From contig NZ_CP021983.2 in NCBI RefSeq assembly GCF_002075285.3, positions 5,070,001 through 5,102,000 on the forward strand: a DNA stretch of 32,000 nucleotides, in the 5' to 3' direction. The first letter of the stretch is position 1; each line of letters begins with the position of its first letter. The stretch comes from Halomicronema hongdechloris C2206. Its GTDB lineage: Bacteria; Cyanobacteriota; Cyanobacteriia; Phormidesmidales; Phormidesmidaceae. Below, in pieces: positions 3,056 through 28,251 of the stretch. Under the pieces are notes generated by a model. It was not told the origin of the DNA. It searched no databases and saw only the letters and a list, made by a program, of their open reading frames with translations. The position numbers were made by a program, and so were the translations under genes.

Positions 3056-3069
3056 GAGTAGGTCTCGTT

Positions 3070-12235: not shown

Positions 12236-14235
12236 TAGGGAGTCACGTAGCAAATTAACTGTGCTTGACGGCTGGCACGGGGATCTAAGACTTGAATCCG
12301 ATTTTCCTGGCAAAGGGCTTCAATCACCTGATCGATCTCTTGCTCACTGAGATCTGGGAATTGCTGCTGAGTACTTTCTATCAACACCATGAGCCCAATG
12401 AAGAGTTGAGTTGTCATGAGATTGAGGACATATCGTCTCACTTCTTCTAAAGGGGGTGGCGGTGGATTACCGGTTACAAGCTGCAATTTCTGGAGTAGAG
12501 GGCATTGTTCGAGCACTTTAGATTGGCGGACAAAGGATTGCAGATCCTGGAGATGGGGAGTTTTTTGATCGATCACTAATTCGCCAGCCCGGGCCGCATT
12601 CGCGAGCTGGTGGTAGGTTTCCAGGTACTGAAGTGAGAGTAAGTCAGGCTTTATGTGGATACAGTTAGCCCGACTATCGAAGATTTGACGATAGATTTGA
12701 TGACCTTTATTCTTCGCTTGTCCTACCCCCTCTGCTCGGATCAAGAAAAGATGATCGCAGAACTGGTTGGTGACCATTTTCTGGCAGGACTTCATGATGT
12801 GATAGAAGGACTGCATGTTGGGATCTTCGCTCCAAACGATGCCAGTACGATTCGATTTTTGGTAGGACAGGGAATAGGAAGCATAGGTGCTGCTCTGAAG
12901 AAATTGAGAGGTGATTTGGGGTACTTCTAGGGCCTCGAGAGCTTGCCTAAGACGCCAGATTAGCTCGGGGGATGAGAATTGATTAATTCGCATTACCTTC
13001 TGACGGACACTCCTAAACTCTTTATCCCAGGTAAGCTGGAAACTTGCTAATTTCTGCTCGCCAGTTCCCTGTCCATTATCGCCATCACCCTTCACCTTGT
13101 CTGGCGGAAACTTAGGCATTCGGCCATGCTGTTTGTAGTAGGTAATGAGCTGTTGGCCCAGCTTAAGCACGTTACGCGGTAGGGCTTTTTCCCCTGGAAA
13201 TTGATGTTTTAACCAGTTTCGAGTCAAGGGGGCGATAGGACTTTCTGGCTCAGGTCTGGCTTGGGCATGGAGAGGAGCCAAACGGGTAGCCCATAGAGCG
13301 GCGGCCTGGTCTAAGTTGATTTGGCGAAGCTGTAAAACTTGGTTGATTCGAGCTTTGTCGGCAGGTTGAATAGTATTTCGATTGGCTTGCCAGGTACTGC
13401 TGACAACACTAATGAGCACCAAGAAATTTTTGAGATTTTCATTGTGAATGGTAGAGTTTAGGTTAAATAGGCTCTGGAGATCAGGTTTGCCGTTTGGAAG
13501 TCTTGGAATACTGTCTAAGTTGTCAAAGCAAAGTACAATGGGCTGAGTGGAATCTGCAATTCGCCCAATATTGCCCAATATTTTCTGGGCTGCATCTTCT
13601 GAGGTGATGGACTTGCGAACTTGAAGTTTCTGGAGATCTTCCTTGTCAAGATCATCCCCCTTCAGCCAGGCATAGGCCAGCATTCTAAGATCAAAATTGG
13701 TGGCCAGATCATAGAGGACGCCAAAGAATTCCTTGCCATTGTAAATGCCAGCAGGAAAACTGGCTGCCAAATCACGTACAAAAGTTCCCCTTTCTCCCAA
13801 TATCCACTTGGTAAGAGAGCGATTGCGTAAGCTAGGAAGGCTTTTTAACCACAGTAAGAGTTGAGACTCTGATTGGCCTTCTGGTACGTGAATCAGGCTG
13901 TCAATGGTGTTGCGGAGCGTGTGACGCCATAGATAGTTGCTGTCGGGCCAAGGTCCAATATAAGCAAAGAAAGCTTTGTTGTTTAGCTGACGCTTAAGGC
14001 GACCGAGTAGATAACTCTTTCCTGACCCTGATGCTCCTGCTAGGAGAATGGTCCGAGTAATGTGATCAACGGTAATTTGATTTATAGTTTGTTCAATTTC
14101 CTGGAGAATTTGCCAATGGATGGCATCAACAACCAGGTTGGGATCTTGATTTTCTTGCCAGAAGTTTCCAGGTCTAAAAGTGCTGGGATCAAAGGGGTTA
14201 AGATTTCTTTTGACTAATTGTTTGAGCGAAGTCAC
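12235..14235 (-). CDS. AAA+/STAND-like P-loop ATPase with C-terminal winged-helix-like domain (Orc1/Cdc6-like layout)
   Basis: Walker A LLAGASGSGKSYLLGRL, Walker B IVLCFDNLD and sensor-1-like LVLISVVSST, with a long helical region and a C-terminal wHTH-like tail. GTG start, 666 aa. It is noticeably more AT-rich than its neighbours. Confidence 0.8.
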   Translation of the reverse strand: MTSLKQLVKRNLNPFDPSTFRPGNFWQENQDPNLVVDAIHWQILQEIEQTINQITVDHITRTILLAGASGSGKSYLLGRLKRQLNNKAFFAYIGPWPDSNYLWRHTLRNTIDSLIHVPEGQSESQLLLWLKSLPSLRNRSLTKWILGERGTFVRDLAASFPAGIYNGKEFFGVLYDLATNFDLRMLAYAWLKGDDLDKEDLQKLQVRKSITSEDAAQKILGNIGRIADSTQPIVLCFDNLDSIPRLPNGKPDLQSLFNLNSTIHNENLKNFLVLISVVSSTWQANRNTIQPADKARINQVLQLRQINLDQAAALWATRLAPLHAQARPEPESPIAPLTRNWLKHQFPGEKALPRNVLKLGQQLITYYKQHGRMPKFPPDKVKGDGDNGQGTGEQKLASFQLTWDKEFRSVRQKVMRINQFSSPELIWRLRQALEALEVPQITSQFLQSSTYASYSLSYQKSNRTGIVWSEDPNMQSFYHIMKSCQKMVTNQFCDHLFLIRAEGVGQAKNKGHQIYRQIFDSRANCIHIKPDLLSLQYLETYHQLANAARAGELVIDQKTPHLQDLQSFVRQSKVLEQCPLLQKLQLVTGNPPPPPLEEVRRYVLNLMTTQLFIGLMVLIESTQQQFPDLSEQEIDQVIEALCQENRIQVLDPRASRQAQLICYVTP

Positions 14236-14263
14236 AAGCAGCCACCATTCTCTTGTACTGCGA

Positions 14264-15091
14264 TTAAATTAGGCTAATAAAAAATAAATTCCCGCCAATA
14301 TGTTGGGGGATCCCTGCTGCTAATTCAGCGTCACTATAGGTGGATACATCCTGGAGTGTGTCTAGTTCGATGCGATCGCATCGCTGCAGCTCGTAGAGCA
14401 TGGCATCCAGAGCTTCCCGGGTAAGGGGAGGCTGCAAGGCCTGACGCAGATGGAAAATAGGCAGATAGTTGTCGGTGCCTAGCTGTCGATCGAGTTGGCG
14501 AATGGTCTCTAGCACAGCCTCTGGGGTTATTGCATCGGCAGTTGTAGATGCTGAGGCGACTGCCCCTTGAGTGGTCGCCAGGGTTTGGCGCAAAAAGGTG
14601 GCATAGTGGCCTATCATCGCTGACGTCATTAGGAGAGAGGAGTTTGTAGGTGTGTACTCCTGTAGCAAGTAATGTCGCCCCTCGGGAGTAAGCCAGACCT
14701 CCTTGATTTGTGTCTTAGTCGCTTGAATCATACCCCGTTGCTGCAATTGGTGTAGCAACCGCTGGCGCTCGCTAGGGGGAACCTGCTTTGCCTGCCCCGG
14801 TGTGGCTGACTTGGTCGTAGCGGCTCTGACTAAAGCCAACTCATCCGGGGTCACTGGCAGCACGCTGGTGTCTTGGTTAAGTAGGGTTTTGCCAGCCCGG
14901 GTAATGCGATAGCGCTGAATCTCTTCGATATAGGCCACCAATCCTTTGCTGGTCAGGGCACGACAGGCTTTATCCCGTTCGCTAGCCTTTGTCTTAGAAT
15001 TAGGCTGAATTTGACTGATGAGGCTGCGATAGTCAGGTGGGTACTCCAACAAGCGCAGCAGGAACTTTTGTTCTATCGAATCTAACTCCAT
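14264..15091 (-). CDS. protein with three winged-helix-like modules (putative DNA-binding component)
   Basis: Two internally similar modules: ERDKACRALTSKGLVAYIEEIQRYRITRAGKTLL and ERQRLLHQLQQRGMIQATKTQIKEVWLTPEGRHYLL. A third lies at the C-terminus (LTREALDAMLYELQRCDRIELD). It is the first gene of the operon, 28 nt upstream of the ATPase. Confidence 0.6.
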   Translation of the reverse strand: MELDSIEQKFLLRLLEYPPDYRSLISQIQPNSKTKASERDKACRALTSKGLVAYIEEIQRYRITRAGKTLLNQDTSVLPVTPDELALVRAATTKSATPGQAKQVPPSERQRLLHQLQQRGMIQATKTQIKEVWLTPEGRHYLLQEYTPTNSSLLMTSAMIGHYATFLRQTLATTQGAVASASTTADAITPEAVLETIRQLDRQLGTDNYLPIFHLRQALQPPLTREALDAMLYELQRCDRIELDTLQDVSTYSDAELAAGIPQHIGGNLFFISLI

Positions 15092-16284: not shown

Positions 16285-17749
16285 TTAGGGAGCATTGGCG
16301 AGGAACCGCAGGGACTTGAGGCTGGGCAGCAAGAAATAGCCGCCGCCCCGCATGGCCACAAACCGAGGTAAATTCAGCAGGCGCTGGCGCACCGGGCAGC
16401 GGGGAATGGTCATGGTGCCGGTGCCATCGTTGTCGCCGATCAGGGGGTCCTTGTTGTCATAGAGGCCATTGAAGCTGGGATCGTTGGCCCAGGTCTGCTG
16501 CACAAACTCGAATTGGCGGCCGATGTCGGCATTGAGGCAAAAGAAATGCAAGCCCCGTAGCTGACCGTCGTCTTCGATATCCAAGGGCAGCTTGCCGGCC
16601 TCGATGTCATCTAAGGGAAACAGGGGGTCGCCAAACAGGCTGCCCCGTCGCAAGATTCGATGGCGGCTAGAGGTGGTAACCGATCCCTCACCGGGGGCAT
16701 CCAACAGGGAATCGCGGGGGTGGGTGCGGCGGATGTGGGCTCCCATGGGGCAGCGTCGGCCATCGGCGTCTTCGGCCAGATAGGCAAAGGCATTTTTATC
16801 CGGCAGCTGGGGATTATCCTGCTCGGGGGCCAGGGTCAGGGGGGTGCCGCTGGGCCAACGCCCTACGAATTTGGCGGCAATCAGAGCCATGGCCTCGGGA
16901 TCAGGGGTGCCCTGGTCATCTACAGTTTGGGCGGCGATATAGCGCCAGAAGCCGGCCACATCCTGAGCTAGTTTGCGGTAGACCAAGAAGCTGCCATTGT
17001 GGCCGAAGTCTTTCACATCGGGCAGTTCCGTGCCGGGAAACGGGGGCAGTAGACTCTCGGGATCGGCTGGGTTGGGCACTACCGGCGTGATCGGCAAGAT
17101 GCCATAGCCATCCGGGTAGCCCAATAAAACTTCGCCGATGGCAACGGTGTTCTGGGTGTGGCGGCGAGGCTTACTGAGGCCTTCAATATCCGGTTGGGAG
17201 ACGCTGTCGTTGAAGCCGAAATGTTCCTTGAAGCTGGGCAGGCGAAATCCTGTTTCTTCCCTCACCAGAGTGAGGCCGCTATCAGCCTGCGATAACAGCT
17301 GCTGTCGGTAGGCGTCAAGGCGCTCGGGGCTGGGGCCGTGGAGCAGCACGATCACGTGGATCGGGGGGCCGCTGGTACCGCCGAATTCCCATTGGTCGGG
17401 AGCGCTGGCCCGGTATCCCCCAGAATCTCAGCCCGCTTCGGCTCGGCCAGGCCTTCGGTGAACTCTCGCGGGCAGGTGTTGAGGGCCGTCTCCACCAGGC
17501 CATAGCCACCAGACCGGCATGGGTGAAGGCCAGGTTGCAGGTGACCTCGGGCTTGATGGTGCTGCCGTCAGGCTTTTGCGGCCAGGGTTTGGCCGTGGTC
17601 ACCTCGGGAATCACCTGCCGCAGCCAGGCTTTGGCCCCGGCCCGGTCGGTGATCGTCAGGAGGCCATAGCTGGTATAGAGGAGGTGGCCAAAGCCACTGA
17701 GAACAATGCCCTGGATATCCTCGCGGTCCGGTGGGGTCAGGTCTGTCAT
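16285..17749 (-). pseudogene. DyP-type peroxidase interrupted by two 1-nt frame changes
   Basis: DyP motifs present: HFGFNDSVSQP (GxxDG-like), GAHIRRTHPR (proximal His) and ILRRGSLFG (distal Arg). The N-terminal ORF (from 17749) turns into Arg/Pro-rich nonsense after ...THAGLVAM. A plausible sequence continues in a second frame (GLVETALNTCPREFTEGLAEPKRAEILGDTGP, about 17490-17410) and then a third (SAPDQWEFGGTSGPPIHVIVLLHG...). Confidence 0.7.
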
Positions 17750-17797
17750 GGGGATAGTCTGGATGGGGGTAGACGATTATGGAGCCTAGTCGGGGAC

Positions 17798-19009
17798 CTA
17801 CAGTCGACTCAGCCAGGTCTCGACCTCTGGGCGCTCGAGCTCATCAGCCAGGGGTTGCACGATGGTGCGATCGCGCAGAATAGTCGCCACGGTGGCCTCG
17901 GGATAGGCCCGATAAAACACCTGGGAGGGCAGTTGCTGGTCATTGCGGAAAAACTGCTTGAAGGCGACGATATCCACGGCCCCGGCCTGGGGATAGCCTG
18001 CCACGTTGTTCCAGATGGAGTTGAGGCCATCGCTGGCCCGGTCGGCAAAGTCGCCCAGGTAGTTGTCGAAGGAGCCATCGTAATGGGTGACAAACAGCAG
18101 ATGCTTGCCACCATCGACGATGGCCCAATGGGCGAAGTGAATGGAGCGAATATTCGAGAGGGACCCCGGCGGAAACAGATTGCGGGCGGCAAAGTGAATC
18201 AAACACAGCACGATGCGCAACCGCAGCAGGCGGCCCCGCCTGACGGTGGACAGCAGATGCAGATGGTTGATGCCGTGCACCACTTCCGGTCGCTGCAGGG
18301 TGCGCAACCGCTCGAAGTCGACGTTGACACCGATATATTCCCCGGCCAGGCGCTTTTTCTCAGGGGCGCCCAGGATGCCGCCGACGAACCGCAGAATCCG
18401 CAGGATAATCTGCCGGATCAGGTGGCAAATGCCGCCGATCAGCCGCTCGATCAATTGCCAAAACCTGGCCCCCACTAAAGCTAGGGCCTGCCACAGGGTC
18501 AGGGGCCGCTTGAGGCTGAACAGAGCATTCAGCAGGGGTTTCAGCCCCGGCTGATCGAGGTAATCGGCGACGGTGTCCTGGTCTAGCAGATCTTCTAGGG
18601 TGCGGCGAATCTGGAGTCGCTTGCGAATGCTGCCTACGGTCTCTCCCTGGATGGCGATGTAGGCGGCCTGAGCCCGGCAGGAATGGGCCTTGATGAAGGA
18701 CTCAAAGGACGCTCTGCCGCCATAGCCGTCGCACTTACTCCAGAGGGCATCCATGTCGGGGCTGAGGCTGACCAGTTCTTGCAGATAGGCGGGTAGGCTG
18801 CCGTCGTAGTTGCCGGTCATCAATAGCCGTTGGCCGTACTCGGGGTCAGCGATAATGGCCAACCGCAAAAAGTGGGTCTTCTGACTCTTGGCAATCTGCA
18901 GGTAGGGGTTGCCGGTCAGATCCGTTGCGATCGCATCTAAGACCTGGCGCAGAGCCGGCTCCTCTCCAGAGCGGATGGGAGCAATCACGGTCAGGGGTTG
19001 GTTGGCCAT
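17798..19009 (-). CDS. hypothetical protein with internally duplicated DyP/chlorite-dismutase-like alpha+beta barrel halves
   Basis: The two halves share a motif pattern: THFLRLAIIAD..LLMTGNYDGSLPAYLQELV versus IHFAHWAIVDGGKHLLFVTHYDGSFDNYLGDFA. I set the start at ATG 19009 (MANQPLTVIAPI). It lies 48 nt upstream of the DyP gene. Confidence 0.6.
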   Translation of the reverse strand: MANQPLTVIAPIRSGEEPALRQVLDAIATDLTGNPYLQIAKSQKTHFLRLAIIADPEYGQRLLMTGNYDGSLPAYLQELVSLSPDMDALWSKCDGYGGRASFESFIKAHSCRAQAAYIAIQGETVGSIRKRLQIRRTLEDLLDQDTVADYLDQPGLKPLLNALFSLKRPLTLWQALALVGARFWQLIERLIGGICHLIRQIILRILRFVGGILGAPEKKRLAGEYIGVNVDFERLRTLQRPEVVHGINHLHLLSTVRRGRLLRLRIVLCLIHFAARNLFPPGSLSNIRSIHFAHWAIVDGGKHLLFVTHYDGSFDNYLGDFADRASDGLNSIWNNVAGYPQAGAVDIVAFKQFFRNDQQLPSQVFYRAYPEATVATILRDRTIVQPLADELERPEVETWLSRL

Positions 19010-19198
19010 GCCGACCTCAAGGGTGGGGATAGAGACTGGCTGGGAACACAGGCTGCTACCCATTAGTATTGACGCCACACCGGAGAAGTCAAGAGAACTT
19101 AATGGTTTTTTGGCCAAAACTGCCAGAAACCCCCAGATTTTGTTGGCCTAGCCCACACAAATGTTGGATCTCTTCAAGAAAAGCAATATCGCGTTCAA

Positions 19199-19597
19199 CT
19201 ATCCCCAGCTCAAGGCAATTAACCCCTGCAGCAGCAGTAGTGCCAAGCCAATCAGGGTGGGCCACCACCAGCGAGCGGCCCGGCCGCCGTGGTCGAGGGC
19301 ATAGTCAAAATGGGGGGTCTCTAGCTGGTATAGAGTGACTGCCACCAGGCCATTCAAGATCACCAGGGCTGGGAACCTGACCCAGACCAACACCAGGCTC
19401 AGAACCAGCAAGACCAGAGACGCCACCACGAAAATATTCCCTTTCTGGCCCTCTCCCCGCCGGATCAAGTTGAGGCCGTAGAGCACCAGGCCAAAAAAGG
19501 GACCGAATGCTAACGTATGTAGCGCCAGGGTGAGGGGGCTGTAGAGGGGAGCCCTGGGAGTGGGTTCGGTCTCGACCGTATCCCCAAAGCTCGGCAC
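19199..19597 (-). CDS. small integral membrane protein (3-4 predicted TM helices)
   Basis: Hydrophobic segments LTLALHTLAFGPFFGLVLYGL, IFVVASLVLLVLSLVLVWV, LVILNGLVAVTLY and WWWPTLIGLALLLLQGLIAL. GTG start. No recognisable family. Confidence 0.5.
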   Translation of the reverse strand: MPSFGDTVETEPTPRAPLYSPLTLALHTLAFGPFFGLVLYGLNLIRRGEGQKGNIFVVASLVLLVLSLVLVWVRFPALVILNGLVAVTLYQLETPHFDYALDHGGRAARWWWPTLIGLALLLLQGLIALSWG

Positions 19598-20399
19598 CCA
19601 GAGACTATAGCCGAAGATATTGATGTAGTTTGCTCATGTCAGTACGCGCCTTCAGGCCAGCTGCCTATCCATATCTCCATTTAGCCGGAAGCGGTGCTCC
19701 CCGGAGCCAGAAATCAACAATTTGCATCACTGGGCATGCTGAGTTGCCAAGGCATCGATTCCATCGGTTACAGGATTAAATCCCAAGTCATGGTTTAAGC
19801 ACACTGCTGTTCTTATGGAGAGGTAAAGATTGATGCCAGAGATAGATATCATGTCATCCCCGGACTCGGCCCAGTTGAGAGTGATTGGAGCTTTGTCGAA
19901 GTCTGGGTTGACCCAATGCTATCTCCTCCCTATGTAATTGCTACTCCTTGGCCATGCATCAGGGGAGCATCGTGTGTATGATCCAGCTGATGGCTATAAG
20001 GTTGTCTTCACGGCGTCGACCTATGACGAAACTCAGACGTGGCTGCTGGAAGACGAATACGAACCGGTTGAAGGCCGGCTATTGGCTACAGAGGTGTAGC
20101 AACTGGCTACGCTGTCATCGCTGAATACGTTCAGCAATGAGGTGTCTGCATGTATCTCGATCTGATAAATCCCCAGCTGATAGTAAATGCCGTGGCATTG
20201 TATCGCGTGGGATTGAGATTCCTCCCTCCGGTCGGAATGACATCTTCAGAATGCCTTGGGCAACGTACTTATATCTCCGTCGCACTTACCGGCCAGGGCA
20301 ATAAATTTCTCCTCGGAGTGATCTCCCCACCCGGATTTGGGGGTACAACGGTAGGCAACTCCCATATGCCGTTTACTGACCTCTGCCCCCCGTGTTTGA

Positions 20400-21741
20400 C
20401 GTCGGCAATTTTTCCAAGCCACCAACCCCGCCCGCACCCTCGATCCCGGCGATGCCGATGATCGCAGACTCTACATTGATTTCTCGGCGGTGCGGGGGGA
20501 GCAGATCATCACCGAGATCAAGGACCTAATCACCTTCTATCAACCGGATGACCCCACCTGCCCCTGTTTACGGGGCATATCGGCTGCGGCAAGTCTACGG
20601 AACTGCTGAAGCTGCGCCACGAACTAGAGGCGGAAGACTTTTATGTGGTTTATTTCGAGTCCTCAGAGGATCTGGAATGGAAATGCGATGTGGACATCGG
20701 TGATGTGCTGCTGGCCATGGCTCGTCGGCATCAGCCAGAGCCTGGAAGGGCTGAAGCTGGGGGAGGCCAAGGGGCTGCGGGGCCTGCTGCAGGGGGCAGC
20801 CAAGATCCTGATGAACGAAATTGAACTGGAAGGCTCGCCGAGTTCATGGGGGTGGGTGTCAGGCAATAGCCAGGGAGAGTTGTCCCTGTCGGCGGGCATC
20901 GGCAAGATCACCGCCCGGGCCAAGAGCGACGCCACCCTGCGGGATCGGCTGAATCAATTTCTCGGCCCCCAGAAGAACCAATTGCTGGAGGCCATCAATG
21001 AGGAGTTATTAAAACCTGCGATCGCACATCTGCTGCAGCAGGGAAAACGGGGGCCTGGTGGTAATCGTGGACAACCTGGACCGGGTCGACAATCGTCCCA
21101 AAGCCTTTGGTCGCTCCCAGCAGGAATATCTATTCATCGACCAGCACGAGTGCTTGCGCCAGCTGCACTGCCACAAGGTCTACACCATGCCCTTGGCCCT
21201 GAAATTCTCCAGTGAGTATGGCCTGCTCACGGCCCGCTACATCGAGGACCCCAAGGTGCTGCCTATGGTGCCCGTCACCCTGCGAGACGGCACCACCTGC
21301 GAAGAAGGCATGCGGCGATTGCAGCAGATGGTCCTGGCCCGGGCCATGCCCGATGTGCCGGAGGCCGAACGGTTACAGCGCCTTCCCGACCTCTTCGACT
21401 CCAGCGAGTCCCTGGTCCGGCTCTGCTCCGTCAGCGGTGGCCACGTGCGCGATCTGCTGCGGCTGCTGAACGGCTGGATCCGCAAAGGCCGCGCCTTCCC
21501 CCTGCAACGATCGAAACTGGAAGAGGTGATCCGGGCCCGCCGCAACGAAATGACCCTGCAGCTGTCGGAAGCGGAATGGGAGCTACTGCACCAAGTGCGG
21601 CAACGCAAACGAGTCGGCGGCGACCAAGACTACCAAACCCTGATCCACAGCCGTCTAGTCTTCGAGTATCGCGACCAAGGCGAATCCTGGTTTGACGTGA
21701 ATCCGATTTTGCTGGAAGCGAGGGAGTTGAGTGGCGAGTGA
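20400..21741 (+). pseudogene. P-loop ATPase (AAA/KAP-like, GCGKSTEL type) with at least 3 frameshifts and no start codon
   Basis: Pieces in three frames join into one protein: NPARTLDPGDADDRRLYIDFSAVRGEQIITEIKDLITFYQPDDPTC | LFTGHIGCGKSTELLKLRHELEAEDFYVVYFESSEDLE..DVLLAMARR | ISQSLEGLKL...AIAHLLQQGKR | LVVIVDNLDRV... to the stop at 21741. Frame changes lie near 20558-20572, 20720-20732 and 21043-21056. The first frame opens right after a TGA at 20397-20399 with no in-frame ATG, GTG or TTG. Confidence 0.7.
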
Positions 21742-21763
21742 CGAGTGACGAGTGACGAGTGGC
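21729..21763 (+). repeat. heptamer tandem array GAGTGRC x5
   Basis: Read directly. The stop codon of the ATPase pseudogene (TGA 21739-21741) lies inside the array. Confidence 0.9.
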
Positions 21764-21802
21764 AGTGGATTATCCGCCCTGCCTCATCTCCCTAACCCAA
21801 CT

Positions 21803-21844
21803 CTTCACCCTTCACTCTTCACCCTTCACCCTTCACTCCCCACC
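21803..21844 (+). repeat. heptamer tandem array CTTCACY x5 plus CCCCACC
   Basis: Read directly in the intergenic gap between 21741 and 21897. Confidence 0.9.
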
Positions 21845-21896
21845 TCCCCAGCCAAGACATCCGCTATTTTTATAGACAAGTTCCCGCCCTGCCTAC

Positions 21897-22637
21897 ATGA
21901 GTACCTCGCCCCCTACAGACACCTTTGCCTTCGGTGATGACTCGGCCCACAACCAAGCGGCCCTGGAGGAGTTGGCCAGTGCGATCGCATTTGGCCAGGG
22001 CGCCGATACGATCACCCTGTTGTTGGTGCGCTGTAACTATGGTCGGCTATGCGATCGCATGGTGGCGGCCCTGCTGACGAAGCTGGAATCGGAAGCCCTG
22101 CAAGGGGCGGTGCATGTGCTGCGGCTGCAGGCCCACGACCACAACCTCTATGGGTTAGTGCAGGCCACCACCGAAGAGCAGCGACCGGGGGCGGTGCTGG
22201 TGTTGGGCACCGAAGCCGTGGATTCCTTGGAAGTGCTGCTGGTGGAGATGAACAAGCGACGGGAGGAGTTTCGCCGCGACTTTCCCTTCCCCCTGGTGCT
22301 GTGGTTCACCGATGACGGCTATCGGCAGCTCTCCCACCATGCCAATGACTTCGAGAGCATCGCCGGCGGCGAAAACCATCGAGTTTCGTCTGGCCGGGGC
22401 GACTCTGGCCCAGCAGTTGCAGCAGGCGGCCCAGCGCATGTTTGCCGCCCTCCTGGCCCCCGATAGCCCCGAGTCCTTCAATGACCGCCTGGAAAACCTG
22501 GACCTGAGGCTCCCTGCAGCCCCAGGAAGTGGCCCTGGCCCTGGCCGATCTGCAGGCCCAAGCCTATCCCCTCGATGCTGATTTACAGGCCAGCGTGGCC
22601 TTTGCCCAGGGGCTGAAATCTGCCTAATGACGAGGCC
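21897..22637 (+). pseudogene. disrupted N-terminal module of the downstream giant nSTAND/CHAT protein
   Basis: The ORF from ATG 21897 (..LLLVRCNYGRLCDRMVAALL..FPFPLVLWFTDDGYRQLSHHANDFESIAG) continues sensibly only after a frame change near 22368-22376 (KTIEFRLAGATLAQQLQQAAQRMFAALLAPDSPESFNDRLENLDL). A second change is needed near 22500-22512 (SLQPQEVALALADLQAQAYPLDADLQASVAFAQGLKS), and a third near 22612-22622 to join NLPNDEAVALFEQS.. of the 22638 ORF. Confidence 0.6.
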
Positions 22638-25600
22638 GTGGCCCTGTTTGAGCAGAGTGCCGCCCACTGGCAGAGCCAACCCGATGCCCCCCAGGCGGCC
22701 CTGAAGCGGGGGCTGGCCCTGTTTTACCTGGGGCGAGCCCAGTACTTCATCGCCGACAACGCCAAATATCGCCAGCCGGATTGGGCCAGGGCCGTGACTC
22801 CCCTGCAGGAGTGTCTGCGGGTGTTCGACCAGGCCGGTCGACCGGATCTGGTGGCCCAGGGCATCACCCAGCTAGAGCGCACCCTGCGCCGGTTAGCGCG
22901 TTGGGATGATTTGCACGAGCTGGCCCAGCGGTCCCTGGCCCTGCACCAGACCTATGGCCCCCCCAGCAAGCTGGCCCAAGACTATGGCCATTTGGCGGCT
23001 GTGGCCCTGCAGCAACACCGCTGGCCAGCAGCGGCGGCGTATGCCCGCCAGGCCCTCGACACCCTGCCCCCCCGCCCCAGCAGCTGGCGCATTCTGTTTC
23101 TCAAGACCCTGGCCAACGCCGAGTATGCCGCGGCAGAGGTGGCCGCCGCTACAGAGCATCTGCAAGCCGCCCGGGCTCTGGGGGTGATGGAGCATCCCAA
23201 GCTCTACAGCGATGTGCTGGCCTTGCTGCAACAGTGCCTGCGAGATCAGCGGCAGTACCTAGAGGCCTTCACCATCAAGCGGCAACGGCTGGCCATCGAG
23301 AAGCAATACGGCCTGCGGGCCTTCATCGGAGCCGGTCGGTTACGGGCCCAACGCACGGAACAGCAGGCCACGGTGCGCTCAGAGCCCCAAACCCTGGAAG
23401 ACATCGCCCCGGAAATCACTGCCTCCGGCCGCTCTCGCGATCTGAACCAGCTGCTGAACCGCATCGCCGGCAAGACCCACAAGTTGCTGGTGCTCCATGG
23501 CACCTCCGGGGTGGGGAAAAGCTCTCTGGTCAATGGCGGTCTGCTACCGGCCCTGCAGGGTCGGGCCCTGGATAACCGCGACAACCTGCCGGTACTGATC
23601 CGCCAATACACCGACTGGCCCCAGGAACTAGCCACCCGCCTAGACCAAGCCCTGGCCCTGCTCCCCGCTCCCCGCCTGAGACCACAATCTCTCCCCTCCC
23701 CTGCCACCGATCCCACCCCTCGCCCCCCTGCGACGTCCCTCAGGGCAAACTCGTCACTCGCCACTCGTCACTCGTCACTGCTTACCACCCTGCGCCGGTG
23801 CGAAGCCGCCACCCTACGGCCGGTGTTCATCTTCGACCAATTCGAGGAATTCTTCTTCGCCCACAGCGATCCCCTGGCCCGCCGCGACTTCTTTCAATTC
23901 ATCGCCGACTGCCTGGAACTGCAACCCAGCGCCCTCAAGATCGTCTTGTCCCTGCGGCAGGATTACCTGCACTACCTGCTGGAGGCAAAGCAACTGGTGC
24001 GGCTGAACCAGCTAGCCGAAGGCTCCATGGCCCGCTCCCAGCTGGAAGACATCCTCGGGAAACAGGTGCTCTACGAAATCGGCAACTTTGCCCCCGCCGA
24101 TGCCAAGGCCATCATCCAGCAGCTGGCCTCGGGCTCCCGCATATTTCTGGAACCGGCCCTGATCGACGCTTTGGTGGCGGATCTGGCCGGTCCCCTGCAG
24201 GAGGTACGCCCCATCGAGATGCAGATCGTCGGGGCCCAGCTGCAGACGGAGGGCATCCAGACCCTGGACCAGTATCGCCACCTGGGGGAGCAGCCCAAGG
24301 AGACCCTGGTGCAGCGCTACCTGGAAGACGTGGTCATCGACTGCGGCGAAGAAAATCGCCAGCTGGCGGAGTTGGTGCTGTTTCTGCTCACCGACGAACG
24401 CGGCACCAGACCCCTGAAGACCAAACCGGAACTGCTGCGGGACTTGGGAGCCTTGGGCATCCCCATCACCCCATCACCCCTAAGCCCTCCGGGCAGGCTC
24501 CGCCAACACCCCATTACCCCATCACCCCCCCACCCCATCACTCCCCCACCTGCGACGAATGCCCAAGACGACAACCTGGATCTAGTACTGCGTATCCTCT
24601 GCGGCTCCGGCATCGGCATTCACTTGCCCGATAGCCCGGATGATCGCTATCAGCTGGTCCATGATTATCTGGCTGGGGTGATTCGAGAGCATCAAGCCCC
24701 TCGATTAGAGGCGCTGATGGCAGAACTGGAGGAAGAGAAGCGCAGACGGCTGGAAGCAGAATCTGAAACGTTGGTGCTGACAGAAGCCAACCGCAAGGCA
24801 AGACGACGACTGTTCTGGAGTTCAGGATTGCTAGCCGCTTCCCTGGTTGCAGCTCTGCTAGCAGGTACTTTTGCAGGTACTGCAACTAATAAAGCTAATC
24901 GAGCAGAACAGGAACTTATCGCCAAGGAACAATCGGCTCAAGATGCTGAGATAAGAGAACGAGAAGCAAGAGCAGAACTAGAACAAGCCGAAGCCGAAGC
25001 CCAACAAGCTGCCAGAGATCTGACACGACTAGAAACTCAAGCAAAGATTTCTGAGCAAGAAATTGAAGCAGCTAGGATTCAGTTTGCTCAGCTTGAGCAG
25101 AAAGCTGCGACAACTCAGCGAAAAAATCAAGAAATCCAGGAAGACTTAAATAGGGCTACATCAGCCATTCAAGAGATAGAAAGTGAGCGGGAGAGATTAA
25201 TACAAGAGCAAGAAGCTCTTATTAAGCGTGAAAGACAGATTCGCAATGATCTTAACATCTCGCAGGAGGAGCTAGAGTCTATTCAAAATGAGCTGTCTAG
25301 TAGTCGGTTTCAGTTAGAGGAGATAGAAAATGACTTGGTTGCCAATATATCTGAGGTCTTAAAACTCACCAGAGAGCAAACTAGTCATGAGGTTACGCCA
25401 GCAATTCTCTATGTGAACTTTGCACCTAAAAAGGACTTCCCGCAAGGAGATGAGGACTATAGTTTAACACTTTGGCTGATCACTTATGATGGTCAATCTA
25501 TCAAGGAAAACATTGATTCAGTGACTCAAGAAAAAGTCCTTTTGGCCATTGACAATATTCAACGAGGATATCGAAGGCGTGACTTAAAGGTCCTAGAAGA

Positions 25601-26492
25601 TCTATACGAATGGATGATCGATCCTATTGAGGGCAACCTAAGGGATTTAAATATAAACAATATAGTTTTTCTGATGGACAAGAGTATAAGAGGAAGGATT
25701 CCAATAGCAGCACTCTATGATGGAGAGAAATTTTTCGTTCAAAAATATAGTTTTGGATTGATGCCAGGATTGACTTTGTCTGACGCTAGATATGTCGACT
25801 TAAGACAATCTGGCTTACTTCTAATAGGCATAGATGCTTTTGATGAATATCCAGAGCTAGCTTTAGGTCCAATACCATATGTCAACTTAGAAATCGATAG
25901 ATTGTCAGAGATTTGGGTGGACAAGACAGTCCTGCGAGATCAAGATGCTAACTATCCTAATGTTCTGAGTGTTAGAAGGCGCAAGAATCACCAAATAGTG
26001 CATATTGCTACCCACGGAGGATCTCTGGCGAATCGAGACAATTTACCTCAACTGGTTCTATGGGATAGAATTCTGACTCCACAAGATATATCTCCCCAGG
26101 ACTGGTATAGTCCACCAGTTGACCTATTAGTATTGAGCACCGGAGAATTGGGTCTTGAAAGAGGAGAATATAAATTTGGAATCGCAGGTGCTTTTCTCAA
26201 TGCAGGTGTCAAATCAGTTATCGCAGACTTGTTCTATTCAAGTGATTCTCTATATCCCGAATTAATGGCAAGATTTTATCAAAATCTACAAGTAGCCCCA
26301 ATCAGGGCTGAAGCCCTGCGAAGAGCTCAATTGTTCCTTCTTAGAGAATTTTTAAATGAAAAAGTTGAGTACGAAAGAGAATACAATAAGGGTTCTTTTA
26401 CTATAGAAGAAAGTTTAACAGTCGAAGAAAGTGATATTAGAAATATTGAGGCTTGGGGTGCGGGAATTACAATCATTGGAAATCCTTGGTAA
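22638..26492 (+). CDS. large multidomain protein: TPR-like helical region, nSTAND-type P-loop NTPase, Pro-rich linkers, one TM helix, ~170-aa coiled coil, CHAT (caspase-like) domain lacking the catalytic Cys
   Basis: 1284-aa open frame. Walker A LVLHGTSGVGKSSLVNGGLLPAL (about 23509-23532) and Walker B VFIFDQFEEFF. TM segment LFWSSGLLAASLVAALLAGTFAGTA (about 24810-24884), then an E/Q/R-rich heptad-like stretch. The CHAT-like C-terminus has VHIATHG (His codon 26013-26015), but LLVLSTGELG sits where CHAT domains have LSAC (Gly codon 26142-26144). Confidence 0.8.
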   Translation: MALFEQSAAHWQSQPDAPQAALKRGLALFYLGRAQYFIADNAKYRQPDWARAVTPLQECLRVFDQAGRPDLVAQGITQLERTLRRLARWDDLHELAQRSLALHQTYGPPSKLAQDYGHLAAVALQQHRWPAAAAYARQALDTLPPRPSSWRILFLKTLANAEYAAAEVAAATEHLQAARALGVMEHPKLYSDVLALLQQCLRDQRQYLEAFTIKRQRLAIEKQYGLRAFIGAGRLRAQRTEQQATVRSEPQTLEDIAPEITASGRSRDLNQLLNRIAGKTHKLLVLHGTSGVGKSSLVNGGLLPALQGRALDNRDNLPVLIRQYTDWPQELATRLDQALALLPAPRLRPQSLPSPATDPTPRPPATSLRANSSLATRHSSLLTTLRRCEAATLRPVFIFDQFEEFFFAHSDPLARRDFFQFIADCLELQPSALKIVLSLRQDYLHYLLEAKQLVRLNQLAEGSMARSQLEDILGKQVLYEIGNFAPADAKAIIQQLASGSRIFLEPALIDALVADLAGPLQEVRPIEMQIVGAQLQTEGIQTLDQYRHLGEQPKETLVQRYLEDVVIDCGEENRQLAELVLFLLTDERGTRPLKTKPELLRDLGALGIPITPSPLSPPGRLRQHPITPSPPHPITPPPATNAQDDNLDLVLRILCGSGIGIHLPDSPDDRYQLVHDYLAGVIREHQAPRLEALMAELEEEKRRRLEAESETLVLTEANRKARRRLFWSSGLLAASLVAALLAGTFAGTATNKANRAEQELIAKEQSAQDAEIREREARAELEQAEAEAQQAARDLTRLETQAKISEQEIEAARIQFAQLEQKAATTQRKNQEIQEDLNRATSAIQEIESERERLIQEQEALIKRERQIRNDLNISQEELESIQNELSSSRFQLEEIENDLVANISEVLKLTREQTSHEVTPAILYVNFAPKKDFPQGDEDYSLTLWLITYDGQSIKENIDSVTQEKVLLAIDNIQRGYRRRDLKVLEDLYEWMIDPIEGNLRDLNINNIVFLMDKSIRGRIPIAALYDGEKFFVQKYSFGLMPGLTLSDARYVDLRQSGLLLIGIDAFDEYPELALGPIPYVNLEIDRLSEIWVDKTVLRDQDANYPNVLSVRRRKNHQIVHIATHGGSLANRDNLPQLVLWDRILTPQDISPQDWYSPPVDLLVLSTGELGLERGEYKFGIAGAFLNAGVKSVIADLFYSSDSLYPELMARFYQNLQVAPIRAEALRRAQLFLLREFLNEKVEYEREYNKGSFTIEESLTVEESDIRNIEAWGAGITIIGNPW
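23751..23778 (+). repeat. heptamer array TCGTCAC x4 (reverse complement of the GAGTGAC arrays) inside the CDS
   Basis: Read directly. It is translated as SSLATRHSSL within a Pro/Ser-rich linker. Confidence 0.9.
24461..24550 (+). repeat. octamer arrays CCCCATCA / CCCCATTA / CCCCCACC inside the CDS
   Basis: Read directly in two blocks (24461-24480 and 24509-24550). They encode PITPSP...HPITPSPPHPITPPP. The complement GGGGTGAT occurs at 28840-28859 and related units at 581-640. Confidence 0.85.
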
Positions 26493-26618
26493 ATATTGTT
26501 TCTTAAGCTTTCAATCCTATCAACAGACACCCTATCTGTCCGGATCATCTCGGAGTATTGAGTGATTTGACCCTCTGTACAGGACAAAAGCTTGAAGGGT
26601 AGATAGGAAAAGGGTTTC

Positions 26619-26798
26619 ATGGAATTGCGAAAGACTAACGAAACCCTTATGGAACAGGTTACTCTACTGCGCGATACCCTGCGGAGTCATCTCAACTGGC
26701 ACGGGGTTCACTTCACTGCTAGCCCGCAGTTGCAACTGGCTGCGCGATTACCTCATCCACAGCCCCGATGTCAGCGATGCCGATCGTGCCCTCTGTGA
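26619..26798 (+). mobile_element. possible remnant of an IS4-like transposase N-terminus (59-codon ORF)
   Basis: MELRKTNETLMEQVTLLRDTLRSHLNWHG... resembles, from memory, the N-termini of cyanobacterial IS4-family transposases. The remainder (..RLPHPQPRCQRCRSCPL) looks like nonsense. I see no inverted repeats and no DDE region. Confidence 0.25.
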
Positions 26799-27223
26799 TA
26801 TCCCACCCCGGGGTGGTGAGTAACGAGCTTGCCCTGAGCGCAGTCGAAGGGTAAAGAGCCTGTCCTGTAAGGCTTTCAGCCAGGCTCCGCCAAGCGCGTC
26901 AGCGGCTCCGCAGGAGCAACGTAGTCGTTTCGCCAAGCGACATGAACGGCTTTACCTGCCCGGAGGGAATAGGGTGGCGAGTAAAGAGTGATACCAATTC
27001 TCCAACAACTGACTACACATGATCTCCCGTAGGGGCGCACAGCCGTGCGCCCAGCGCAATATCTCGGTATAAGCACAGACCGAGGCATTCTCGTTGGCGA
27101 TAGCCTGCCTTTGGCATCGGGTAACGCGACCATGACTGCTGGTGGAGCTTCAAAGCTGGGTTTGCATCACAGAGAGTCAGGCGAGATGGCCGCAAAAACT
27201 CCATAGCTTCCCATCTCTAACTA

Positions 27224-27541
27224 TCACACTGCTATTTTTAGTGGGCGCCCTGTCATGTTGAGCTGGCCCCCATAGAGTTTTCTCTGGGCCGCAGTCATTT
27301 CTCTGTGGTACTCCTCTATTTCGGGGCGATCCCCATAGAGTTTTCTTTGGGCCGCAACGATTTCTTTGCGGTACTTATCTATAGCTGAGCGGTCCCCAGT
27401 CATTTCTGACCGGTCCCCATAGATTCCCGTCTGGGCCGCAACAATTTTCATCCGGTGCTTCTCTATGGTTGAGCGGGCCTCGATCAAATTTACTGCAATC
27501 CCTAGCTGACCAAGGCAGGCCATAGATAGCGTCCATAACAA
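27224..27541 (-). CDS. questionable ORF encoding 21-aa repeats (GDRxxIxxYxxxxxAAQRKLYG)
   Basis: 105-aa ORF that stays open through the 63-bp tandem repeat. The unit lengths (63, 63, 21, 63 nt) are all multiples of 3. No known family and no clear RBS. Confidence 0.3.
   Translation of the reverse strand: MLWTLSMACLGQLGIAVNLIEARSTIEKHRMKIVAAQTGIYGDRSEMTGDRSAIDKYRKEIVAAQRKLYGDRPEIEEYHREMTAAQRKLYGGQLNMTGRPLKIAV
27268..27477. repeat. tandem repeat, 63-bp unit x3 plus a 21-bp partial unit
   Basis: Units at 27268-27330, 27331-27393, 27394-27414 (partial) and 27415-27477, each beginning CCCCATAGA (the partial unit begins CCCCAGT). Units 1 and 2 are about 75-80% identical by eye, and unit 3 is more diverged. 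Confidence 0.85.
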
Positions 27542-27590
27542 ACCATCCCGCCATCCTCAGACTCCGAGTCGCGCCCACACTAAACATACA

Positions 27591-27751
27591 AGAAGGACCC
27601 TCGCTACCCTGTCGATGCAACGCGATCTTAAACGACCACTCGACCAGCCCTTCCGTAGGGTCCAGGGCGGCGGAACGCCCTGGTAGAGGGGGTTCCGGGG
27701 GAGCCGGATGAGCACCCCGAGCTACGCCATTAAGTGCGGTCTTACCGAGGT
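27591..27751 (+). repeat. dispersed ~165-180 bp repeat, copy A
   Basis: Shares these blocks with copy B: CGATGCAACGCGATC, a 21-nt variable block, CCTTCCG, GGGTCCAGGGCGGCGGAACGCCCTGG (perfect 8-bp hairpin) and GAGCACCCCGAGCTACRCCATYAAGTGYGGYCTTACCGAGGT. Confidence 0.8.
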
Positions 27752-27852
27752 CTCAATCCCCTATCAACAAGCCCACCCCAGGCCAAATCTCCACACCCAC
27801 AGACCGTCTGCTACCCGCGTAGCCCCCCCTGGATTCTGAGTCGCGCTGCACT

Positions 27853-27876
27853 TGCCCGGAATGACGGGCACTTTTT
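27853..27876 (+). terminator. intrinsic-terminator-like hairpin with T-run (orphan)
   Basis: TGCCCG (27853-27858), loop GAATGA, CGGGCA (27865-27870), then CTTTTT. It lies about 100 nt downstream of repeat copy A with no CDS upstream. Confidence 0.35.
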
Positions 27877-28251
27877 CATTAGGGGTGAGACCCTAAATAA
27901 TGAAGCTCTGACCTTAAACAAACAATTGGGGTCAGAGACTGACCCGTTCTATCTTTTTCCTAGAACGGTTTACCCCTCGCCCCCAAACGATCTGTCGGTG
28001 ATGTTCTAGACATGAGGGGGCCTCTGGGCCATGGGGCAAGTATGTTTTTGATGACCGATGCCGGATTTGTGCCCTATGTCGTCTATCTCTATCTGGTTCC
28101 GGTGTGGACCTGGCTGAGGTCGCCAACGTTAGCCGCCGGTGCCAGCGACCACCAGCCGGGAGTGGGCTGTCTAATAGGGAGCGTTGGTCTCGAGAGGGCC
28201 GGCTGTGTTGAGGCTGGCATCTCCAACAGATCACCTGGCTCGGCTCGAGCT

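Follow-up and report, generated by a model that had tools for sequence, protein, structure and literature searches.

A STAND-type gene of Halomicronema hongdechloris C2206 with three single-base frame breaks and an exchanged C-terminal cassette

Positions 21897-26492 (forward strand) of Halomicronema hongdechloris C2206, within the window analysed here (the whole 32,000-nt stretch of contig NZ_CP021983.2, 5,070,001 to 5,102,000), form one 1,530-codon ORF without a stop once three single bases (22372, 22506 and 22616) are deleted, and on homology they are a single immune-receptor-like (STAND NTPase) gene with 21897-22637 as its N-terminus, because this N-terminus is fused in P0162, an intact ortholog, and in some 20 further relatives with an unbroken gene. 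Comparison with the ortholog also shows replacement of the TM-coiled-coil-WD40 tail in C2206 by a foreign TM-coiled-coil-CHAT cassette. The cassette swap is more interesting than the frame breaks, and overall the gene is a modest variation on a known architecture. As a broken gene it is ordinary, most likely reflecting either locally poor quality of a hybrid assembly that is by now old or a pair of very young pseudogenes; the locus is a clean, datable example of STAND/NLR-like rebuilding, with an intact ortholog, a sharp GC3 break in a conserved motif, a foreign cassette and a stub.

When the ORFs are mapped and all three frames translated, frame 0 can be read from the ATG at 21897 to a stop at 22464-22466 (189 aa), and the path of homologous sequence runs through frame +1 (about 22372-22505) and frame +2 (about 22507-22615) before returning to frame 0 from about 22617. 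The 189-aa ORF, whose tail is out-of-frame junk (ENHRVSSGRGDSG...), is identical to ASC73870.1 (XM38_048440, 21897-22466), and the longest ORF, which runs to 26492 from GTG 22638, its first possible in-frame start, is identical to ASC73871.1. The 1,284 codons of the latter, already counted as uninterrupted in an earlier note on this DNA and recovered in the ORF map, extend from 65% to 40% GC and are not a chance opening, since a random ORF would be expected to span about 40 codons. The same note had described a protein of roughly 1,500 aa and followed its N-terminal module into the 22638 ORF across three frame changes, near 22368-22376, 22500-22512 and 22612-22622. Base-level alignment to the intact ortholog (contig L035, protein P0162) bears this out, placing three +1 insertions inside those intervals:

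22372-22375, forward strand: frame break 1, one extra A (A3 to A4); every homolog has AGGETIEF
22506-22507, forward strand: frame break 2, an extra G in CT-G-AGGC; homologs have LDLG(S/Y)LQP
22616-22618, forward strand: frame break 3, one extra A (A2 to A3); the intact ortholog has AQGLNLPNDEAVALF

From the N-terminal domain (N-dom) to the TPR-nSTAND1 part, the homologous sequence is complete and collinear, interrupted by these three insertions. Rfam and tRNA scans of the window gave no match, and the junctions are therefore not explained by an intron, tRNA or riboswitch. When metagenome contigs were scanned for the patterns of break sites 1 and 3, in corrected or uncorrected form, nothing matched either, L035 included. 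The further features of the gene and its upstream neighbour are as follows:

20392-21741, forward strand: partner gene, a KAP/ATPase_2-like P-loop ATPase of 452 aa, intact in the ortholog contig L035
21729-21844, no strand: STRR-type intergenic heptamer tandem repeats (GAGTGAC x4.7, CTTCACC x4.9)
21897-22371, forward strand: N-dom (about 158 aa), read in the original frame, its start MSTSPPTDTF shared with the intact ortholog
22617-23420, forward strand: TPR-like helical repeat region, with sub-threshold TPR matches only (TPR_MalT 2.5e-6, TPR_12 1.7e-5)
23427-24401, forward strand: nSTAND1 NTPase (Pfam PF20703, ORF aa 264-588, 2.1e-25, 90.6 bits, cut-off 27.1)
23742-23780, forward strand: in-frame 39-nt ACTCGTC heptamer repeat expansion relative to the ortholog
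24483-24530, forward strand: in-frame 48-nt CCCCATCA/CCATCACC octamer repeat expansion relative to the ortholog, PITPSPP linker
24648-24740, forward strand: conserved YQLVHDYLA...APRLE.L.AELEEE motif, the 5' cassette junction
24737-26715, forward strand: foreign low-GC cassette with TM helix, coiled coil, CHAT and, after a stop of its own, about 220 nt of non-coding 3' sequence
24810-24881, forward strand: predicted single TM helix LFWSSGLLAASLVAALLAGTFAG of 19-23 hydrophobic residues, with a basic KARRR just before it
24888-25385, forward strand: coiled coil, weak SMC/LmuB/JetC-like matches
25587-26351, forward strand: CHAT (caspase-like) domain (PF12770, ORF aa 984-1238, 4.4e-36, 125.2 bits, cut-off 24)
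26716-26823, forward strand: orphan stub, the last 35 codons and stop of the original WD40-type gene (LLARSCNWLRDYLIHSPDVSDADRALCDIPPRGGE*)

The nSTAND and CHAT assignments that had been made from the translation are both confirmed by Pfam matches above the cut-off, and the proposed TPR segment stands as a TPR-like region, its profile matches in the window protein being sub-threshold only. Read from the translation, the NTPase has a Walker A GTSGVGKS at 23499-23522 (GTSGVGKSS to 23525) followed by a Walker B-like VFIFDQFEE, both kept in relatives. The TM-like helix lies 55-80 residues past YQLVHDYLA, with Kyte-Doolittle values of 1.87 in the window protein and 1.7-3.1 in L007, L010, L011, L012, L014, L017, L020 and L034, and we infer from it a membrane topology for the window protein. 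This single helix had been called unusual, but it occurs at the same position in WD40-bearing relatives and in AAA_35-TM-coiled-coil-CHAT proteins; in the nSTAND1 literature searched, a TM helix in nSTAND1 proteins goes unmentioned. The SMC-like coiled-coil matches that follow it span ORF aa ~750-910.

The gene encodes the large subunit of a conserved module of two genes found in filamentous cyanobacteria, in which a KAP-like P-loop ATPase lies upstream and the larger protein consists of N-dom, TPR-like region, nSTAND1, one TM helix, coiled coil and a module at the C-terminus. This last module is a WD40 propeller in relatives, where it is presumed to act as the sensor of a STAND/NLR-type switch, and a STAND-type mechanism may apply to the 21897-26492 protein as well. 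Of the 28 genome relatives, most consist of one ORF of 1,443-2,048 aa with N-dom first, and all six scanned have nSTAND1 and WD40. P0162, an intact 1,431-aa protein on L035 (JGI metagenome 3300023218), shows 88% nucleotide identity over window positions 20284-24736. It resembles the window gene in its MSTSPPTDTF start, N-dom, TPR-like region, nSTAND1 and YQLVHDYLAGVIREHQAPRLE motif, and the two loci agree in the 452-aa P-loop ATPase upstream and in the last 13 codons and stop, which are identical; unlike the window gene, it has neither the frame breaks nor the +39 and +48 nt repeat expansions. The comparison with intact homologues that had been recommended thus places the N-terminus within one gene.

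N-dom matched no Pfam family. Its AF2 model (pLDDT 80, pTM 0.76; whole database proteins were used as input for structure prediction) has a beta-alpha-beta layout, and its Foldseek matches in the PDB are all P-loop cores (ORC3, Cdc6/ORC2, RFC, Rif2, clamp-loader delta, NB-ARC) and weak (E 5e-3 to 0.1, TM 0.4-0.5). Walker A is absent, with LLLVRCNY at the P-loop position, and N-dom is therefore predicted, on these models, to be an alpha/beta P-loop-like fold lacking Walker A. A conserved protein of 164-165 aa (P0130, P0159) at a different locus in other cyanobacteria consists of N-dom alone. The earlier description of this module as a recurrent N-terminus holds for cyanobacterial TPR-nSTAND1-WD40 proteins; no sign emerged that CHAT proteins generally begin with it. 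N-dom is an undescribed domain, putatively P-loop-like and without Walker A, and together with its ATPase partner it is testable in studies of cyanobacterial immunity and cell death.

The partner ATPase lies on the same strand as the STAND gene and is 88% identical to its L035 counterpart; ATPase and STAND genes are also paired in L002, L001 and L005. Six frame-shifting indels interrupt it (20403, 20562, 20727, 20837, 20854 and 21049), and XM38_048430 covers its last 227 codons (21058-21741). Its dN/dS against L035 is 0.058 in the 5' part and 0.068 in the 3' part. These six further breaks are not in the earlier note.

The C-terminal replacement is marked by composition and by homology. GC3 is 0.78 before and 0.33 after a change-point at about 24660, and DNA homology to L035 ends at about 24736 and is back at 26764-26839. 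The cassette stands in place of about 1.5 kb of TM-coiled-coil-WD40 in the ortholog: the C-terminal 480 aa of P0162 are TM-coiled-coil-WD40 and those of the window gene TM-coiled-coil-CHAT. No WD40 match was found by Pfam in the window protein, whereas P0162 and all six scanned relatives have WD40. The stub at 26716-26823 (36 codons with the stop) matches the C-terminus of P0162 and is now out of frame and untranslated. Recombination swapped the cassette in, with the 5' junction inside the YQLVHDYLA...APRLE motif and the 3' junction at about 26715, and left the stub downstream. The closest relative of the cassette is 57% identical over a 282-aa fragment and all others are at most 39% identical, so that no close relative was found. 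The replacement, with its sharp GC3 break and C-terminal stub, had not been described in the earlier note. A GC3 drop after the TM helix is seen in relatives too.

The catalytic His-Cys dyad of CHAT, the His of a THG motif and the Cys of an LSAC motif, is established for the caspase-haemoglobinase fold. When these residues were mapped by alignment, the His of the THG motif was found to be kept in the window protein (IATHG, 26013-26015) and the LSAC Cys to be replaced by Gly (LLVLSTGELG, GGA 26142-26144), a change that the earlier note does not mention. Across 37 clade representatives the Cys column holds C in 27, S in four, G in three, A in two and D in one, and the nearest CHAT relatives are also without the Cys or the HG His. 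Because its sub-clade has lost the catalytic Cys, the acquired CHAT is probably inactive; judged from these residues, it is probably a pseudo-protease or interaction module and not an active caspase-like effector. PDB sequence searches with the CHAT segment found no CHAT structure. nSTAND1 and CHAT are combined in only two of the 37 top representatives, one of them the window protein; the rest include 15 with TPS, seven with AAA_35 and three with TIR. The AAA_35, TIR and TPS proteins that end in (TM-)coiled-coil-CHAT (P0013, P0012, P0170) belong to the same CHAT sub-clade, at 30-39% identity. In them, too, a basic stretch is followed by TM, coiled coil and CHAT and the catalytic Cys or HG His is often lost; they differ in their N-terminal AAA_35, TIR or TPS secretion domain. 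P0014, a partial protein on an unrelated metagenome contig, is nSTAND1-TM-coiled-coil-CHAT and alone in the CHAT comparison set shares nSTAND1.

With the described nSTAND1 clade (PF20703; PMC8195603), the window protein has in common Walker A and B and a Pfam score over the gathering cut-off. A multidomain layout of effector or adaptor, NTPase and repeat or sensor is typical of predicted counter-invader systems of multicellular bacteria (Kaur, Iyer, Burroughs, Aravind 2021, PMC8195603), and the window protein has a layout of this type. It differs in its N-terminus, where an undescribed P-loop-like domain and TPR-like repeats stand in place of any known effector or EAD, in the TM helix and coiled coil after the NTPase, and in its C-terminus, where CHAT, normally an effector, takes the place of the repeat sensor. 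Apaf-1/Avs-type STAND switches pair a WD40 or TPR sensor with NTPase oligomerisation and an N-terminal effector or adaptor, and the likeness to them is one of analogy: the ancestral NTPase with C-terminal WD40 and the setting rich in defence genes fit, but those models have no membrane anchor between NTPase and sensor, which is predicted for the window family, and the sensor is missing in the C2206 gene. In PADLOC-DB 2.0, neither Avs nor any other defence model matched the window protein, apart from weak coiled-coil matches (LmuB 3.6e-5, JetC 4.5e-4); P0162 had no match, and the upstream ATPase matched PDC-S20 at 4e-4.

As to the origin of the breaks, the nine frame-breaking indels (three in the STAND gene, six in the ATPase) fall in two clusters of 890 nt in total (simulation P=0.002), and the homologous ORF downstream (2.1 kb) and the 1.75-kb cassette are free of them. 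Seven of the nine alter runs of 1-5 identical bases by +/-1-2, and two lie outside homopolymers. Against L035, dN/dS is 0.058 in the ATPase indel cluster, 0.090 in N-dom and 0.064 from break 1 to break 3 (dS ~0.3); by codon position, the two indel clusters differ at 7/5/46 and 4/1/14 sites, mostly third positions, and the broken parts hold no in-frame stops once the indels are taken out. Low dN/dS (0.06-0.09), unequal codon positions and the lack of nonsense codons are unlike a long-standing pseudogene, and they show that relaxed selection is absent in the broken parts, that the breaks are not old and that the codons have been under strong purifying selection. The C2206 assembly is a hybrid of 17x 454, 14x PacBio RS and 41x 36-bp Solexa data, and its authors reported poor 454 contig ends as well as chimeric PacBio reads and misassemblies at contig ends (PMC6416890). 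Because the indels are clustered and of homopolymer type, the substitutions third-position dominated and the assembly a hybrid, we lean towards homopolymer-type base-calling or assembly errors for all nine breaks over very recent real lesions. Among the alternatives that had been offered earlier, sequencing error and very recent inactivation are thus the favoured ones, given the dN/dS of 0.06-0.09 across the broken parts, and a truncated protein made from GTG 22638 is not. Several observations count against an artefact: other genes in the window look full-length, so that errors would have to be local; two of the nine indels lie outside homopolymers; the pieces passed PGAP and GenBank as separate proteins; family relatives are truly disrupted elsewhere and real decay of such genes is common; and the loss of WD40 together with a Cys-less CHAT could have made the system useless, freeing both genes from selection.

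Real and very recent breaks are the strongest competitor, though the less probable reading: the swap of WD40 for a Cys-less CHAT would have killed the function of both genes, leaving a young pseudogene pair that gathers frameshifts. It would account for nine indels confined to both genes of one functional unit amid intact-looking neighbours, a sensor module that is gone and a CHAT without its nucleophile, and it has parallels in independent disruptions within the family (a 2-nt deletion in L002, a frameshift common to the three metagenomes L003-5, one in L027, an in-frame stop in L013, and further cases in L015 and L006). However, selection does not appear relaxed (dN/dS 0.06-0.09, no nonsense codons), and the ~2% divergence at second positions allows at most ~13 neutral substitutions against six indels in 650 nt, a ratio that would be several-fold above the one known from bacterial pseudogenes. 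The tight clustering (P=0.002), with the 2.1-kb downstream ORF and the 1.75-kb cassette spared, and the mostly very short runs, in which natural slippage is rare and 454/PacBio errors are typical, also speak against it.

That the breaks are real and a truncated 1,284-aa TPR-nSTAND1-TM-coiled-coil-CHAT protein is made from GTG 22638 and held by selection seems unlikely. Zero indels in 1,284 open codons against nine upstream, and repeat expansions of +39 and +48 nt that kept the frame, would suit it, but the open frame is explained equally well by artefact indels. GTG 22638 lies within a helical repeat and is the start of no homolog, the following in-frame ATG is about 190 codons on, a promoter and terminator scan found nothing upstream of 22638 and regional matches no commoner than in shuffles, and the partner ATPase would be dead too. 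A very improbable reading takes the low-GC CHAT tail as an assembly chimera with no real recombination; the chimeric PacBio reads and contig-end misassemblies noted by the assembly authors (PMC6416890) lend it some colour, but it needs two in-register joins, of which the 5' one is in frame and inside a conserved motif. Native stub and 3' flank are moreover back after 2 kb, GC3 falls after the TM helix in relatives as well and nSTAND1-TM-coiled-coil-CHAT recurs in the unrelated P0014, and we rejected the chimera on the in-frame 5' join, the native 3' sequence and this recurrence.

Less probable still, 21897-22637 could be a small standalone N-dom gene separate from the 22638 ORF, as the standalone P0130 and P0159 (164-165 aa, other cyanobacteria, different locus) might suggest; this was rejected because N-dom is fused in the 88%-identical ortholog, in most genome relatives and in the whole Leptolyngbyaceae/Pseudanabaena clade and because 22372-22616 encodes the homologous linker in shifted frames, and the 189-aa ORF moreover finishes in out-of-frame junk. 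Programmed breaks (+1 ribosomal frameshifting, transcriptional slippage or phase variation at short repeats), to which three shifts of like sign that sum to +3 and restore the original frame and the heptamer and octamer tandem repeats in the gene could point, have next to no probability and were rejected, since A4, CTGAGG and A3 are too short for slippage, the sites lie away from the tandem repeats and are absent in every homolog, three shifts share a sign by chance in one case out of four, and the partner gene has indels of mixed sign.

If base-calling or assembly errors do account for the breaks, the C2206 gene could be a functional swap product of a membrane-anchored STAND receptor system with exchangeable C-terminal cassettes, a reading that we advance only tentatively and hold to be doubtful as a whole. 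A cytoplasmic part made of an inactive P-loop N-dom, TPR and nSTAND1 would work with the KAP-like ATPase, and one TM helix and a coiled coil would couple it to a possibly extracytoplasmic C-terminal cassette. The cassette might be either WD40 propellers or a Cys-less CHAT akin to the CHAT ends of two-partner-secreted proteins, and paralogs and genomes may swap such cassettes by recombination at the YQLVHDYLA...APRLE junction. For annotation, XM38_048430, XM38_048440 and ASC73871.1 need a second look and are probably best merged or flagged. The surroundings of 21897-26492 are rich in defence genes, among them PIN, SspH-like and another STAND gene.

The window gene (21897-26492, plus strand) starts at the ATG 21897, where 189 codons are open up to a stop at 22464-22466; homology continues in the +1 frame and then in the +2 frame and regains the original frame just before a GTG at 22638, the start of an uninterrupted run of 1,284 codons up to the stop at 26490-26492. 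Both the list of ORFs and the translation in three frames reproduce the layout described in the earlier note, namely three frame changes followed by 1,284 open codons. GenBank already holds three pieces of the locus as separate proteins: XM38_048440 of H. hongdechloris C2206, identical to the 189-aa first ORF (N-terminal domain profile search); ASC73871.1/WP_088431189.1, the 1,284-aa ORF (cluster look-up), annotated as 'Tetratricopeptide repeat domain protein'/'CHAT domain-containing protein'; and XM38_048430, the final 227 codons of the upstream partner ATPase gene. TPR matches upstream of nSTAND1 are all sub-threshold. The two domains recognized by Pfam, numbered below from GTG 22638, are separated by a hydrophobic helix (LFWSSGLLAASLVAALLAGTFAG) and an SMC-like coiled coil:

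ORF aa 264-588, plus strand, nSTAND1 NTPase domain (Pfam, 2.1e-25)
ORF aa 984-1238, plus strand, CHAT domain (Pfam, 4.4e-36)

An intact ortholog, P0162 (1,431 aa), falls in the same 90% cluster as the window protein and is encoded on L035, a 6.2-kb JGI metagenome contig on which an intact 452-aa KAP/ATPase_2-like ATPase precedes it. Window 20284-24736 aligns to L035 with 88% DNA identity, and exactly three differences, one extra base each, break the frame of the window gene:

22372, plus strand, break 1: A3 in L035, A4 in the window
22506, plus strand, break 2: extra G in CT-G-AGG relative to L035
22616, plus strand, break 3: A2 in L035, A3 in the window

Removing these three bases gives a 1,530-codon ORF without stops, whose predicted junction peptides would be GGETIEFR and fragments of ENLDLGSLQPQEVALALADLQAQAYPLDADLQASVAFAQGLNLPNDEAVALFEQSAAHWQ, and the short-tandem-repeat expansions relative to L035 (+39 nt at 23742, +48 nt at 24483) are in frame. 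Because the corrected frame opens and the N-terminal domain (N-dom) is fused in P0162 and in most relatives (single ORFs of 1,443-2,048 aa with N-dom first; 28 loci in species-representative genomes), the alternative raised in the earlier note, that 21897-22637 is a gene of its own, is rejected for this clade. Standalone, conserved N-dom proteins of 165 aa do occur, but the locus that encodes them is unrelated to this one. A protein of this kind (164-165 aa; L036-L040, 7001-7498) adjoins an SLH-GHL10 glycoside hydrolase gene in Lyngbya and further Oscillatoriales, with no STAND gene adjacent; one exact sequence of this type was found in 34 blocks of the collection, and 24 contigs were read. 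On another syntenic JGI contig (L002), a Uma2-family endonuclease gene (2834-3412) separates the ATPase gene from the STAND gene, an insertion that neither the window nor L035 has.

In the partner ATPase gene (20392-21741, plus strand), a further six indels break the frame, and all of them lie within 20403-21049. The nine indels form two clusters that together span 890 nt (P=0.002 by a two-cluster span statistic); the remaining ~3.4 kb of homologous coding sequence has none, and neither has the 1.75-kb CHAT cassette. In seven of the nine, a run of 1-5 identical bases is longer or shorter by 1-2; the L035 states at the nine sites are C2, +A, G1, G2, G5, G4, A3, no extra G and A2. Once the indels are set aside, the broken segments appear to be under full constraint: comparison with L035 yields dN/dS values of 0.058 (ATPase cluster), 0.090 (N-dom) and 0.064 (from break 1 to break 3) at dS ~0.3; the two clusters differ from it at 7/5/46 and 4/1/14 first, second and third codon positions; and no nonsense codons were found in these segments. 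Had they been neutral long enough to gather six indels in 650 nt, we infer that many more first- and second-position changes would be expected. The 454, PacBio RS and Solexa chemistries are sources of homopolymer-type indel errors. The C2206 genome is a MIRA hybrid assembly of 17x 454, 14x PacBio RS and 41x 36-bp Solexa data, and its authors report 454 contig ends of poor quality, PacBio reads that were chimeric and joins based on PacBio data (PMC6416890). Sequencing or assembly error is, in our judgement, a rather likely source of the nine indels.

Real and very recent decay is possible though doubtful. The other genes of the window appear full-length, which speaks for decay and against an artefact, and the family is independently disrupted in other assemblies: L002 has a 2-nt deletion, L003-5 share an identical frameshift in three metagenome samples, L013 has an in-frame stop, L027 a frameshift, L015 is truncated to N-dom and L006 is truncated inside WD40. 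The low dN/dS and the lack of nonsense codons, however, argue against any old decay. A selected, truncated product from GTG 22638 is very unlikely, as neither a promoter-like signal nor any homolog start supports that codon. As a finding, the frame breaks are nothing unusual: they are probably an artefact, or otherwise mark a young pseudogene.

The C-terminal part of the gene has a different history. GC inside the ORF falls from ~0.65 to ~0.38 and rises again after 26650, and GC3 drops from 0.78 to 0.33 at a change-point near 24660. DNA homology to L035 stops at 24736, within the conserved motif YQLVHDYLAGVIREHQAPRLE-L-AELEEE, and restarts at 26764-26839. Window 26716-26823 encodes LLARSCNWLRDYLIHSPDVSDADRALCDIPPRGGE up to a stop, corresponding to the C-terminal end of P0162 (LLTAACRRLTPYLTNNPDVSNADRALCGIPPRGSE, likewise up to its stop), and is now an untranslated stub of the old C-terminus. 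P0162, L002 and all six relatives scanned carry a TM-coiled-coil-WD40 tail. Together, the GC3 break, the homology gap, the stub and these WD40 tails show that ~1.5 kb of native tail was replaced by ~2.0 kb of foreign DNA, comprising the TM helix, coiled coil, CHAT, stop and a 3' flank of ~220 nt. The cassette's TM segment shares ~80% protein identity with that of another Leptolyngbyaceae nSTAND1 gene (P0025/L006); a paralogous nSTAND1 gene is the probable donor. An artefactual chimera from assembly is unlikely, since both joins would have to be in register and the nSTAND1-TM-coiled-coil-CHAT layout also occurs in P0014, another CHAT relative. In many relatives (L002, L006, L007, L009, L010, L011, L014), GC3 falls from ~0.7 to ~0.4 right after the TM helix, which suggests that C-terminal modules have been exchanged repeatedly in the family or drawn from a lower-GC pool.

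An exhaustive search returned more than 1,000 relatives at E<=1e-30, with CHAT always C-terminal. N-terminal domains among the 37 top representatives include two-partner secretion (TPS; 15), AAA_35 (7), TIR (3) and nSTAND1 (2), the last being only the window protein and P0014. The cysteine position of the LSAC motif is Gly in the window protein (GGA, 26142-26144); that column reads C27/S4/G3/A2/D1 across the 37. Among the closest relatives, which bear the TM helix, either the Cys or the histidine of HG is often missing, and P0175 shares the same STG. The lack of the nucleophile therefore came in with the cassette and is no sign of local decay. The domain is unlikely to work as a protease.

The observations of the earlier note stand, in the ORF map and in the single 1,530-codon frame after three deletions; its interpretation holds in part, and the claim that a single TM helix between NTPase and protease-like domain is unusual does not. 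A hydrophobic helix after basic residues lies 55-80 residues past YQLVHDYLA in eight loci (L007, L010, L011, L012, L014, L017, L020, L034) and recurs in AAA_35-TM-coiled-coil-CHAT proteins, and is evidently a family feature. An N-in/C-out topology is plausible from the link of the CHAT clade with secreted TPS proteins. For N-dom, a Pfam scan found no family. Its AlphaFold2 model (pLDDT 80, pTM 0.76) has a beta-alpha-beta fold, whose Foldseek PDB matches, all weak (E 5e-3 to 0.1, TM 0.4-0.5), are P-loop NTPase cores (ORC, Cdc6, RFC, Rif2, clamp-loader delta, NB-ARC). With LLLVRCNY where a Walker A motif would sit, we regard N-dom as a P-loop-like domain that is probably inactive.

By analogy to STAND/NLR switches and to the nSTAND1 systems that Kaur et al. 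describe (PMC8195603), WD40 propellers of the ancestral protein would sense a ligand, the protein would then oligomerize through nSTAND1, and the signal would leave via the N-dom/TPR end with the partner ATPase. In C2206, the WD40 sensor is gone and a Cys-less CHAT stands in its place, an architecture that may be either a new combination or a dead end. What gives the locus value, as a modest novelty, is the exchanged cassette together with the undescribed module of N-dom and ATPase. No PADLOC model matched the window gene system; its setting, with PIN, SspH-like and another STAND-like gene nearby, fits a defence island. A lower-GC block (0.46-0.50; 9433-15091, minus strand) carries defence-type genes, among them one for a 275-aa protein without family:

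9433-9822, minus strand, PIN toxin
10244-12313, minus strand, SspH-like FtsK/HerA ATPase fused to a Cas4-like PD-(D/E)XK nuclease (PADLOC SspH, 3e-67)
12235-14235, minus strand, AAA_16/NACHT/KAP-like ATPase

STRR-type heptamer and octamer tandem repeats occur in the intergenic spacer (21729-21844) and within the ORF (23749-23779, 24461-24550), where the two correspond to the +39 and +48 nt expansions. Repeats of a similar kind, also translated (ELGTSTS...), are found at this linker in Nostocalean relatives. The stretch 3' of the stub (26840-28000) is ORF-poor and without Rfam or tRNA matches; it contains:

~27032, GC-rich palindrome GGGGCGCACAGCCGTGCGCCC
27259-27398, 63-nt tandem repeat, 2.2 copies

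Three consecutive ORFs (144, 439 and 132 aa) at 17315-19597, minus strand, share one frame with short gaps and have no Pfam matches; they may be three small genes, or else a single one interrupted by in-frame stops. The neighbouring ORF at 16285-17355 overlaps them by 41 nt in another frame.
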